Shown here: piece by piece, positions 10,443 through 53,500 of the stretch
Position numbering within the stretch: position 1 is the stretch's first letter
Layout: every line of letters starts with the position of its first letter
Assembly (NCBI GenBank): GCA_041178425.1
Contig: JBEGVH010000029.1
Coordinates: forward strand, 32,001 to 96,000
Source: Pseudomonadota bacterium
GTDB lineage: Bacteria; Bdellovibrionota; Bdellovibrionia; Bdellovibrionales; Bdellovibrionaceae
Direction: 5' to 3'
Length of the DNA stretch: 64,000 nucleotides
The notes under the pieces: model-generated
The model's database searches: none
What the model saw: the letters and a program-made list of their open reading frames with translations, nothing else
What the model was told of the DNA's origin: nothing
Made by a program: the position numbers and the translations under genes

Positions 10443-11492
10443 TTAAGATCGAACTCCATGAGCACGACTTTCATTTGCACCACTTGAGTTCATTTCGATG
10501 AATCGAGCCTTTTGGGAAATTTCATCCAGCGTTGTTGCATTGAGATAGCTCATACCAGAACGAATCCCTCCTGAGATCTCAAGAATAACGTCCTTTACGT
10601 GCCCCTTAACGGTCACCTGAGTGGCCTCACCCTCTGGAGCCATTCCCTCAGGAACTCCTCCTCGCCAAGAGACTTGAGCCGCTTTCGAAGCCATACCACG
10701 ATATTGTTTTTTTCCATTTTTAATATCGCCGGGGGTCTCGATGGTTCCTGAGAGCATACTTCCCAACATGACGGTGTTCGCACCCGCAGCGAAGGCTTTA
10801 ACCATATCGCCACTCGTTCTGATGCCACCATCAGCGATCAGTGGTACTCCTCGTTCGCGAGCCACCTCAGCGCAGAGGGCAATCGCCGTTAACTGAGGGA
10901 TTCCACAACCTGTAATAATGCGAGTGGTACACATGCTTCCGGGACCGATACCCACCTTGATGGCGTCAGCACCGGCATCGATGAGGTCTTCAGCGGCTTC
11001 GGCCGTTGCCATGTTTCCAGCAATCACGTCGACCGAGGGGAACTGATCCTTCACCCATTTGAGAGTCTCTATCATTTGAACCGAGTGCCCATGGGCAATA
11101 TCGAGTGTTAAAAGATTGCAGCCATTTTTAACTAGAAGTGTCGCTCTTTCTTTAAAATCATCACTCACACCAATACTCGCCGCAATCACTTTGAGATTTT
11201 TCTCTCTTAACTCCCTCACCATGACCACTTGTTCATCGATACTCATAAATCGATGCAAAATACCCACGCCACCCAACTCGGCCATTGCCAAGGCCATTGA
11301 AACTTCGGTAACGGTATCCATATTGGCACTCACAATGGGAGTCTCAATCTCTATGTTCTTTGTTAGCTTTGATTTGAGACTCGGTTCTCGTCGAGAACGA
11401 ACGTCAGAACGGGAGGGCACCAAGAGAACATCATCAAAGGTAAGTCCACGGCTACGGTTCTTGATCGACGACCACTGAAAAAATAAATCCAT
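10443..11492 (-). CDS. IMPDH/GMP-reductase family protein lacking CBS domains, probably GMP reductase
   Basis: [41 protein letters not shown]. No Arg-Tyr flap dyad. GAGGTGA RBS before the ATG at 11492. Confidence 0.85.
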
Positions 11493-11635
11493 ATTCACCT
11501 CATTCAAAACTCTAAAAAATGTCGGTTATTTTCCTCTGTTTGTCTACAAGACACTCGTATTAACGGCCAACAGACTATCAATTTAAAAAAATTCCCATCC
11601 TCTTTTAGTGCTAGAGACTGACCCTCTCAAAGAGA

Positions 11636-11798
11636 AGCCCTTCAAGGCTGATCGGAGTCCTAGGAGGTGAAGAACTGAGGGCTCCGGCGAACGTGATGTG
11701 TTGGCCGTGCCCCAACGGGGCCGGGCACGCCGGCGAGGCCATGGAATGGCCGCCCCGAAGTATTCACCTCCTAGGACTCCGATCAGCCTTGAAGGGCT
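11636..11798. repeat. perfect 36-bp inverted repeat around a 91-nt GC-rich structured spacer; candidate ncRNA
   Basis: 11636-11671 agcccttcaaggctgatcggagtcctaggaggtgaa is the exact reverse complement of 11763-11798. Confidence 0.95.
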
Positions 11799-11908
11799 CC
11801 CATCCGTAAGATCCTCGCCCATAACGGCACTGTCAAAAAGATCGACATCTGCGTCTTCGGTAGAAACCAGCCAAGTGTAAAGTAGGGAGGGGTCGACAAC
11901 GCCTAGCA

Positions 11909-11924
11909 AGGCATGATTCCTGCT
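11909..11924 (+). promoter_or_regulatory. putative sigma-54 promoter
   Basis: AGGCAT-N5-CTGCT (GG-N10-GC), 24 nt upstream of the 11948 start. Confidence 0.5.
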
Positions 11925-11947
11925 TTCTAATTGAGTGGAGGACACCG

Positions 11948-13369
11948 ATGAAGAAAACAACTTTTGTTGAATCAGGAAGCCATTTTTTAATTGCTGGGGT
12001 CATGGCGCTGACTATGGCTACCTCTGCCTGTAATGAAAAAAGCTCCTCCCGACAACAACGTCCCGCGCGTCGAGCTGCGGCCATGAAAAACAACACTCCA
12101 GGCCCAAATAACCAACAACCCAGCCCCGCAGACACAGCGACTCAGCCAAACACCCCCCCGTTGCTTCCACGGTTAAACTCTCCAGATGAGCCATCAAAGA
12201 GCTTTGAAAAACCAACTGGTCGAAGTGGAACTCAGGAAACTCTGACTCGTTCTAACCCATTTCCGACTTCGGAAAAAGAAAAAACAGCCTCACCCACTAC
12301 CCCTTCGCCTCAAACGCAGGTGTTCGGTGATCTTCAACATGTTCTTACACAGCTCCATAATATTTATTTAAACGCTTGGTATGCCGTCAATAAGGATAAA
12401 TCTTCGAGACCCCGTAATTTCTTTGAAGACATCGCTGCTAAAATTCAGAATCTCAGCCCAATAATCAGCCTCAAAGATGGCGAAGGAACTCCTGCTTCTA
12501 TCAATGACCGTTGTGATCGCTACCGTCTGGTGCACACCCATGATCTAGTCAAGAACCGGCAACGATTATTGCTCTATGACTGTACCACTAAAAGCTACCT
12601 CCCAGAGGCCCTCTTGACTTATCGTGTGCAAGGTAATGAGTGGCAAATAGCCACAACTCCGCAAACACTCGATTTTATTCTTCCAAATCAAATGGGATTC
12701 CTTTCCACGATTTCTTTTAAGCCTCTTTGTTTGGTGACCATAGAAAAAGAATCTAGCTCCACAAAGATCTCAAAGGCCCTTTGTAAGGAATGGGGACAAC
12801 AGCTCTCTTCGTCGAAGGCTCAAGATCGTAAAACAATTTTATTTAATTTGCTTAAGTATGATCGCTCGGCAGTGAATGTTCTCGAGGTCGAAGCTCAGTA
12901 TATCGACTATGATGGTTCTAATCAGGTTTGTCGAAGTGGAATGATGAGGCGTAAGGCACCATCTTCAAAAGAGGTGATTTATCTTGATGACGAAGACGTC
13001 AGTGAGTGCAAACCAAGCCCTTTAGATCAACCAAAGCAGGCATTTCCCATAACTGCTCCTGAGATGCAGCCACCCCAAGCCGAAACAAACACGGGTCATC
13101 GCCCTTCTCCCACCGGCGAGCCAATGGTTAAGAATCCTCGCGCGATGGCCATACCGATGAATCCTACTGCCCAAAATACACCACCGATCATGAATCCAAA
13201 TGAAGGTGAAATGAATTTTGGTAATCCCGAGATTCAAGTTCCTCCCGTCCTTGAACCCGCGGCCCCCAGTGTTGACACCTCTGAGGCCATAACTCCAGTG
13301 ATGGAGCCTCCGATGGACAGCCAAGAGCCTATGGCACCTGCGAACTTTGGAGAAGTGGAGACTCTGTGA
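11948..13369 (+). CDS. hypothetical lipoprotein with Pro-rich disordered termini
   Basis: Lipobox ...MATSA-C; central beta-rich Cys-containing domain; GGAGG RBS. Confidence 0.75.
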   Translation: MKKTTFVESGSHFLIAGVMALTMATSACNEKSSSRQQRPARRAAAMKNNTPGPNNQQPSPADTATQPNTPPLLPRLNSPDEPSKSFEKPTGRSGTQETLTRSNPFPTSEKEKTASPTTPSPQTQVFGDLQHVLTQLHNIYLNAWYAVNKDKSSRPRNFFEDIAAKIQNLSPIISLKDGEGTPASINDRCDRYRLVHTHDLVKNRQRLLLYDCTTKSYLPEALLTYRVQGNEWQIATTPQTLDFILPNQMGFLSTISFKPLCLVTIEKESSSTKISKALCKEWGQQLSSSKAQDRKTILFNLLKYDRSAVNVLEVEAQYIDYDGSNQVCRSGMMRRKAPSSKEVIYLDDEDVSECKPSPLDQPKQAFPITAPEMQPPQAETNTGHRPSPTGEPMVKNPRAMAIPMNPTAQNTPPIMNPNEGEMNFGNPEIQVPPVLEPAAPSVDTSEAITPVMEPPMDSQEPMAPANFGEVETL

Positions 13370-28569: not shown

Positions 28570-28661
28570 TGGTGCCCCGGGCCGGACTTGAACCGGCACG
28601 CCCGTGTTAACGAAGCCCAGGATTTTAAGTCCTGTGCGTCTACCAATTTCGCCACCGGGGC
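28570..28661 (-). tRNA. tRNA-Leu (TAA)
   Basis: gccccggtggcgaaattggtagacgcacaggacTTAAaatcctg...ggttcaagtccggcccggggcacca; long variable arm, encoded CCA. Confidence 0.97.
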
Positions 28662-53335: not shown

Positions 53336-53411
53336 TGGCGTCCCCAAGGGGATTCGAACCCCTGCATCCTCCGTGAAAGGGAGGTGTCCTAGGCCTCTAG
53401 ACGATGGGGAC
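53336..53411 (-). tRNA. tRNA-Glu (TTC)
   Basis: gtccccatcgtctagaggcctaggacacctccctTTCacggagg...ggttcgaatccccttggggacgcca. Confidence 0.97.
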
Positions 53412-53424
53412 CTAGATAAAAAAG

Positions 53425-53500
53425 TGGTGACCCGCGATGGGCTCGAACCATCGACCCCATCCTTAAAAGGGATGTGCTCTACCAACTGAGCTAGCGGGTC
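53425..53500 (-). tRNA. tRNA-Lys (TTT)
   Basis: gacccgctagctcagttggtagagcacatccctTTTaaggatg...ggttcgagcccatcgcgggtcacca. Confidence 0.97.

Follow-up and report, generated by a model that had tools for sequence, protein, structure and literature searches.

The window, that is, the whole 64,000-nucleotide stretch of DNA analyzed here, carries a long hairpin between a gene for an IMP dehydrogenase (IMPDH)/GMP reductase and a gene for a probable lipoprotein (Table 1). The IMPDH/GMP reductase gene is divergent, with its ATG ∼145 nt from the element. The arms of the hairpin are exact reverse complements along 36 bp and enclose a 91-nt spacer with a GC content of 70%, compared with 56% in the arms and 44% in the genome. 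A survey of the 3.06-Mb genome for perfect inverted repeats (arms of at least 14 nt, spacers of up to 600 nt) returned 81, of which this is the longest. The predicted RNA fold has a free energy of −121.1 kcal/mol (z = −12.2), and none of 200 shuffled sequences was equally stable. Inverted-repeat survey and folding thus confirm the perfect 36-bp stem around a 91-nt GC-rich loop that an earlier note on this DNA had described. The inner helices that it listed (ccggcg/cgccgg, gcccc-aac-ggggc, and ggccat-gga-atggcc) are also real and part of the covarying family fold presented below. Its mutually exclusive fold, in which the start of the left arm pairs with tgagggct, has an ensemble pairing probability of ∼0, and the arms differ in other copies. 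The direct repeat tcccatcc is present as claimed but is neither a feature of the element nor a target duplication, its left copy being separated from the stem by 35 nt; in a comparison of mismatched flanks, 19 of 342 pairs had a word of at least 8 nt in common.

Table 1. Coordinates of the features at the locus, of the tRNA genes in the window, and of a second long-stem family in the same genome
Feature	Position	Strand	Remarks
IMP dehydrogenase/GMP reductase gene	10443..11489	-	PF00478, E = 3e-117; outside the element
P1, 5' arm	11636..11671	+	36 nt, copy-specific; exact complement of 11763-11798
P2, 5' side (CUGA-GGGC)	11675..11682	+	Pairs with 11752-11760; nearly invariant G-C pairs in alignments
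P3, 5' side (CCGGCG)	11684..11689	+	Pairs with 11728-11733
Small hairpin 1, KGA triloop, 3 bp	11691..11699	+	Covarying stem; UGA, not GGA, in the window copy
Variable spacer hairpin	11702..11727	+	∼26 nt here
P3, 3' side (CGCCGG)	11728..11733	+	From family alignment and RNAalifold
Hairpin 2 (GGCC-AUGGAAU-GGCC), CsrA/RsmA-type GGA loop	11737..11751	+	By sequence likeness
P2, 3' side (G-C-CCC-GAAG)	11752..11760	+	From family alignments
P1, 3' arm	11763..11798	+	Perfect here; outer end imperfect in strain X3
Sigma-54-like promoter of the lipoprotein gene	11910..11924	+	3' of the element
Probable lipoprotein gene, 473 aa	11948..13369	+	Without Pfam family; right neighbor, outside the element
tRNA genes of the window	28573..28661, 53339..53411, 53428..53500	-	
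Second-family loci (this genome)	C30:200405, C6:70345, C20:64460, C14:29317, C40:80463, C9:13217, C40:7319, C14:164325, C21:2788		

The locus is covered by contigs of three studies (X1 to X3), X1 being possibly the source of the assembly. The suspicion that the hairpin is an assembly fold-back artefact is contradicted by contigs from X2 and X3, both of them other studies, which carry the two arms at this locus with strain-specific changes that include a compensated pair; contigs of X3 extend from either flank, through an arm, into the core. Such an artefact would fit the finding that no single contig across the four runs spans the whole element, but reads cover the core ∼7 to 10 times more deeply than the flanks, as a repeat would lead one to expect, and the same architecture of stem and core is present in complete genomes, leaving the artefact next to impossible. 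The right arm of X3 differs at positions 11790, 11792, 11794, and 11798, and only the change at 11794 is matched by a left-arm change (11640). The change-type tallies of X3 leave no room for left-arm partners of 11792 and 11798; for 11790, there is a single change of the needed type, which recurs in the other runs and thus probably belongs to a variant of the core (all but 18 rows of the change table were covered). The perfect 36 bp are thus a strain-level state, since the stem of X3 is imperfect at this very locus.

BLAST and profile searches recovered eight full copies of the loop in this genome, together with one half copy and fragments, and every full copy tips its own long stem. Core identity among the eight full copies ranges from 71 to 97%, whereas the arms are no more alike than chance (median identity 45%; shuffled arms, 44%). 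Not one 14-mer of the 11636-11671 arm recurs in the genome. Judging by these comparisons, the conserved unit is the loop and not the stem, a point that the earlier note had missed; what persists in the stem is its pairing rather than its sequence. All copies are intergenic and lie beside unrelated genes (90 flanking proteins), and the covariance model described below finds 10 matches in this genome. The genome contains 21 long-stem elements, which divide into eight of the main family, two of a related form, eight of a second family, one of a third, and two that are unrelated. Multiple copies with unrelated neighbors contradict the proposal of a stand-alone, single-locus RNA. The element is also at odds with a classical MITE, as the arms are not common to the copies and target duplication is absent, abutting direct repeats having been detected at none of the 19 elements examined. 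The second family comprises eight to nine long-stem elements with a conserved two-strand core of their own and copy-specific stems; it has no Rfam family, no pair of GGA hairpins, and no match to the covariance model. Families B and D of this genome, with model scores of 6 to 22 bits on both strands, were not assigned to the main family. A flagellin gene is bracketed by the long-stem element of the third type (C30:236724-236929, with a partial tandem copy) and a main-family copy (C30:239401-239560).

The genes flanking the window copy encode neither a reverse transcriptase nor a transposase, as first noted, and none was found genome-wide either. A retron msr-msd was therefore discarded, with RVT_1 unmatched in the genome and IMPDH and a lipoprotein as neighbors. 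The only sigma-54-like match in the window (0.17 expected; at least one in 16 of 100 shuffles) lies 3' of the element, which excludes the latter from the lipoprotein leader; this placement, already proposed from the sequence, agrees with the conservation of the site at the orthologue in the relative G001. The lipoprotein itself is uncharacterized, and its G001 orthologue is also preceded by a sigma-54-type promoter. No copy of the element occurs upstream of the IMPDH orthologue of G001; the contig with the G001 lipoprotein gene stops too early for the same comparison. A leader switch operating through a mutually exclusive fold, as once suggested, conflicts with the multiple copies, their unrelated neighbors, and the negligible alternative fold. 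More generally, the element could regulate the IMPDH or the lipoprotein gene in cis, as a leader, an attenuator, or a processing site, given its position in the divergent promoter region and the three other copies that sit in sense orientation 84 to 224 nt upstream of a gene; long duplexes in general can terminate read-through transcription or lead to processing of the transcript. The diversity of neighbors across the 90 flanking proteins, the negligible alternative fold, the sigma-54 site downstream of the element, and the G001 IMPDH orthologue without element make this very improbable.

In samples of 151 genomes, a covariance model built from 11 copies identified 35 carriers within the family, 43 within the order, and 10 within the phylum. 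Carrier genomes contain 1 to 23 copies, and all these counts are lower bounds, with 24 candidates scored per genome. The 116 family genomes without a match include one congener. In the family fold, the basal stem P1 leads to helix P2 and then to a junction with P3 on one side and the GGA hairpin on the other; inside P3 are the 3-bp hairpin with a KGA triloop and the variable spacer hairpin, which in genus relatives has long perfect stems and a length of up to ∼90 nt. Covarying homologues, named at the outset as a check on the element, were thus found: when 20 copies were aligned with plain MAFFT, two-sided changes were observed at 22 of 35 pairs. The covariation score was 0.499 vs 0.135 for shuffled alignments and at most 0.197 for slid controls, and none of 500 shuffles reached it. 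In the plain MAFFT alignment, 3 of the 6 pairs of P3 change on both sides and 99% of its cells are paired. RNAalifold arrived at these helices as well, apart from a shifted register of one pair; in the window copy, the exact register of C11682 differs between RNAalifold and the structure given here. A model-fitted alignment of 66 distinct hits, which leans toward the model, raised the covarying pairs to 42 of 44. The basal stem of these 66 copies has a median length of 28.5 bp, and 1,875 of 1,994 basal-stem positions are Watson-Crick. GGA occurs in the 3' hairpin of 63 of the 66 homologues, in the 5' hairpin of 41, and in both of 40. In a second set of 45 copies (45 of 52 rows, leaving out three duplicates of one place, one near-identical orthologue, one contig-end copy, and the two weakest), GGA is present in the 3' region of 44, while the first loop reads UGA in 28, GGA in 14, and is unclassified in 3. 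P2 probably contains a tandem G·A against GAAG; the UGA/GAA sequence is present in the window copy and most genus copies, with Watson-Crick pairs instead in many distant homologues.

Divergent doublets of the element occur in G002 (four), G105 (two), G132, G395, G427, G392, and G389, and a single syntenic copy has been kept across five genomes of genus g10. Exact-pattern scans returned no match in metagenome contigs and none in viral contigs, the pattern lacking one loop variant; in genome contigs, they gave 21 matches, namely, two genus relatives and 19 without core and stem. At the orthologous ffs-dnaX locus of G062 (L243:1501-1780) and G059 (L248:1332-1601), ∼70 nt separate the element from the SRP RNA gene, which has its 5' end toward the element.

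The element, a candidate unknown ncRNA or DNA element in the earlier note, belongs to no Rfam family: none matched it at the gathering threshold, positions 11500-11960 were without a match at E ≤ 10, and the only Rfam entries at gathering in the window were three tRNAs. Sub-threshold matches to miRNA-type families elsewhere were dismissed as generic long-hairpin matches. The closest known relative is the TwoAYGGAY motif (Rfam RF01731; Weinberg 2010, PMC2864571). A genome-wide search with RF01731 at E ≤ 1 gave no match, the controls being likewise blank; of 20 homologue loci, one passes its threshold of 43 bits, with a score of 49.1 aided by the generic stem, and in two other homologue scans, none of 19 and none of 20 passed. 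By gathering threshold and loops (UGA plus AUGGAAU, with the spacer hairpin between), the window copy falls outside RF01731.

The resemblance to TwoAYGGAY is nonetheless broad. According to a recent preprint, this motif consists of two sequential AYGGAY hairpins on a basal stem and attains copy numbers of up to 202, with 68.4% in divergent doublets at a median distance of 249 bp (bioRxiv 10.64898/2026.09.22.753630). The present element likewise combines a long, sequence-variable basal stem with GGA-loop hairpins, has a high and variable copy number, and forms divergent doublets a few hundred bases apart. Its UGA/GAA helix under the 3' hairpin, probably of tandem-GA type in the window copy and most genus copies, recalls the gut rows of the published alignment, where a UGA…GAA helix lies under the second hairpin and divergent pairs occur on one contig (Weinberg 2010). 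Unlike in TwoAYGGAY, helix P3 and an extra spacer hairpin part the two small hairpins, the first loop has the three-base form KGA, here mostly as UGA, and in relatives the element resides within IS4 ends and near DUF222/HNH genes, an association that the main text of the preprint does not mention. That main text has no Bdellovibrio, HNH, or insertion sequences, and figures S17 to S29 could hold such variants. For the extended TwoAYGGAY form of Pseudomonadota, three extra hairpins, a 3' pseudoknot, and 5' GMTBT repeats have been described there; flanking repeats of the GMTBT type were not evident by eye at our copies. No published description of this repeat family was found in open-access PMC and bioRxiv. 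On these sequence comparisons, we regard the element as an uncatalogued TwoAYGGAY-like structured repeat of which the window locus is one ordinary member.

The GGA loops point to CsrA. Hairpin 2 resembles the general consensus of Csr sites, with GGA exposed in the loop of a short hairpin. It was likened to Csr sites after PMC4333381, where CsrA binding was proposed for TwoAYGGAY and its outer stem reported to be poorly conserved. As in CsrB/CsrC and RsmX/Y/Z (PMC4333381), GGA is presented in a short GC-rich hairpin loop with CA before it, in a host with a canonical CsrA. Unlike those sRNAs, which have many sites, each unit has one or two, closed by a stem of 20 to 50 bp, and the element is dispersed in multiple copies. 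We infer that the 3' GGA hairpin, or both hairpins in many homologues, binds the host CsrA. The window copy itself would be a poor two-site ligand, as its first loop is UGA and its second, AUGGAAU, is one base longer than the AUGGAU loop of congeners. CsrA is encoded in this genome and in 176 of 182 family genomes, and such near-universality means that co-occurrence discriminates nothing. In Bdellovibrio bacteriovorus, CsrA represses a flagellin (hag) reporter with GGA sites (PMC13443453), and one copy of the element in this genome precedes a flagellin gene by 205 nt and has the same orientation.

These traits might instead reveal a domesticated sRNA family in which each copy has its own promoter and all act jointly as a CsrA sponge, the equivalent of CsrB/RsmZ, with mobility being incidental. 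The GGA loops, the strand bias documented below, the covariation, the single syntenic copy of the g10 genomes, and the flagellin-upstream copy would all suit this role, which has been proposed for TwoAYGGAY (PMC4333381). Syntenic retention as a single copy in g10 is easier to reconcile with a host element that has been maintained than with a parasite. Yet each unit offers only one or two GGA, the copies share no promoter motif, the 116 family genomes lacking a match (24 candidates scored each) do so though CsrA is present, and the element occurs in IS ends and nuclease-gene arrays. Moreover, the common UGA form (28 of 45) is unexplained by a pure Csr-sponge role. We consider the sponge rather doubtful.

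At four orthologous loci, the core is kept and the stem rewritten with changes on both sides, so that stems evolve in place and are not target duplications. A collinear segment of 3.1 kb is 78% identical between G386 and G025, and the 86-nt core within it is inverted, at 93% identity, between differing stems; the invertible element envisaged in the earlier note is therefore borne out over evolutionary time. Arm homogenization and spacer inversion are described as outcomes of template switching (PMC5941160; PMC8604942). The element is absent from orthologous purD 3' ends in four congeners, and no clean empty site was found, synteny being broken at both loci checked.

The two strands of the element are not equivalent. 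Mismatches in the basal stem favor G·T over A·C by 40:21 in the 66 copies and by 38:4 in 45 further copies, with p-values that overstate the bias, given that related genomes are not independent and that the model rewards G·U in the 12 outer pairs. The wobble excess points to one functional strand, set apart from the other either because selection acts on it as a folded single strand or because mutation is linked to transcription; the bias also fits single-stranded DNA or strand-biased mutation. Most copies with a called downstream gene (42 of 56) face the 3' end of that gene, 17 copies lie between convergent and 6 between divergent genes, and no common promoter or terminator motif was seen in their flanks.

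Single-stranded DNA is the basis of a further alternative, unlikely but serious, in which the element behaves like REP/REPIN or IS200 ends: a DUF222/HNH or Y1/HUH nuclease would nick the hairpin and mobilize or rearrange it, with GGA and UGA as DNA recognition loops. The arrays, inversions, and mosaics that crowd the HNH genes of G284, the swap of UGA and GGA that leaves only GA invariant, the bias to gene 3' ends, and the near-perfect stems would all be accommodated. REP, BIME, and REPIN sequences are intergenic, palindromic, and multi-copy, form doublets, and are biased to gene 3' ends. The element shares each of these traits with the REP/BIME/REPIN sequences associated with RAYT, but its arms vary from copy to copy and a common terminal tag is missing. 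Assignment to REP/REPIN with RAYT was rejected: Y1 (PF01797) is unmatched in this genome, none of the 12 best Y1 loci carries the element, and the arms are not shared. Y1_Tnp is also absent from G095 and G134, with eight copies of the element each. A conserved terminal tetranucleotide and a common arm sequence are both lacking, and the conserved CA(N)GGA loop fits an RNA-binding site.

In relatives, some copies travel with selfish genes. G004 encodes an IS4-family transposase (Tnp_DNA_bind plus DDE_Tnp_1) with the element upstream, and a second, inverted copy begins just past the transposase stop codon, at the contig end; the complete right IS4 end was seen in G002. The terminal repeat of this IS4 occurs 30 times in G001, G002, and G004. 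Twenty of the 30 ends hold the core ∼45 bp inside, 18 in outward and 2 in inward orientation, 7 have deletions, and 3 run off the contig; these IS-end copies are located where MAG contigs end and may therefore be affected by chimeric assembly. The insertion sequence has ∼300-bp inverted ends containing the hairpin, CT termini, and a 9-bp target that is one of two near-identical words at 25 of 30 ends, with the target type common to 28 of 30. The IS4 family is reported to have CT ends and ∼10-bp duplications (De Palmenaer 2008, PMC2266710), and the arrangement in G001, G002, and G004 fits this description of IS4 (IS50/IS10/ISPepr1 type). The target itself lies in the center of another hairpin repeat family. 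One IS4 end has a related form of the core with a different stem.

Could the window copy be an orphaned end module of this IS4, that is, an IS-derived relic or MITE fragment? Its closest homologues outside this genome lie ∼45 bp inside both IS4 ends, and some arms here resemble the IS-borne stem base. Unlike an IS4 or MITE, however, the window copy lacks a terminal repeat, a target duplication, and a transposase. Its family extends through the order in the absence of this IS, and no core match was found beside 80 distant IS4 homologues (32 to 38% identity). The core variants also differ between IS ends, which suggests that the IS acquired the core. We therefore hold the relic to be highly unlikely. 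In this genome, the IS4 terminal repeat, DDE_Tnp_1, Y1_Tnp, Transposase_20 (IS110), and RVT_1 were all unmatched, as judged from a MAG of 43 contigs in which repeats may be unassembled.

A second association involves DUF222/HNH nuclease genes, to which G284 has 42 matches. Copies of the element occur within 1.5 kb of 15 of the 21 such loci scanned, often as arrays on both sides and mostly facing outward, and in three cases they start at most ∼50 nt from the stop codon. The DUF222/HNH genes of G284 share an upstream promoter-like block and are accompanied by mosaic arrays of the hairpin element. In G132, the divergent doublet encloses a broken reading frame, which we take to be IS5-like. Elsewhere, the element was found at none of five DUF222/HNH loci of three other genomes, mobile-protein matches (six queries) were absent from 34 further element loci, and the short doublet spacers of G002, G105, G395, G427, G392, and G389 contain no recognizable gene. 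Two further genes, one IS5-like at 317 nt from a copy in G104 and one of IS1380 type at 650 nt from a copy in G004, seem to be neighbors by coincidence. No element occurs near the DUF222/HNH gene of this genome. That gene is intact (C21:24734-25690) and follows short tandem repeats, and a near-identical 3' fragment (C21:7000-7209) lies 17 kb away. Most copies are without a selfish neighbor, and this counts against a vehicle model. Most simply, the repeat is free-living and was acquired by some selfish genes.

Altogether, we put at roughly one in two the probability that the window hairpin represents, as a solo copy, a structured repeat that is dispersed in Bdellovibrionales, non-autonomous, and similar to TwoAYGGAY, and that acts as RNA, binds CsrA, and is borne by vehicles. 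The element would fold as RNA, with the long stem isolating and stabilizing the branched core of ∼90 nt. Polymerase template switching between the arms would yield both perfect arms and inverted cores, the 36-bp perfection seen here being a recent state of the strain. Having no enzyme of its own, the repeat would multiply by local duplication, giving rise to doublets and arrays, and spread by riding active selfish genes, namely, IS4 in the three genus relatives and DUF222/HNH cassettes in G284. The copies in this genome would then have been stranded after loss of the vehicle.

A bolder idea, to which we assign a small but appreciable chance, is that the core is a portable cis-module recruited to both ends of unrelated selfish genes (IS4 and IS5 transposases, DUF222/HNH nucleases), where it may bind CsrA to damp read-through or serve as a nuclease substrate or partner RNA. 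The 2026 preprint leaves open how TwoAYGGAY spreads, why its doublets are divergent, and whether it contacts Csr, as well as the link between mobility and regulation (bioRxiv 10.64898/2026.09.22.753630). The window copy is an ordinary member with partly non-canonical loops, and its family gives handles on these matters: an IS4 with an outward-facing pair of modules, nuclease genes ringed by the element, and an orthologous site with an inverted core. In complete genomes of the Bdellovibrio type, the single-copy version makes the element testable in a cultured predator with an active CsrA. If the portable-module idea is true, divergent doublets of the TwoAYGGAY type in bacteria at large would be such cassettes emptied of their genes, and this would provide a first mechanism for the doublet layout and the bursts in copy number, and a first role for DUF222/HNH.
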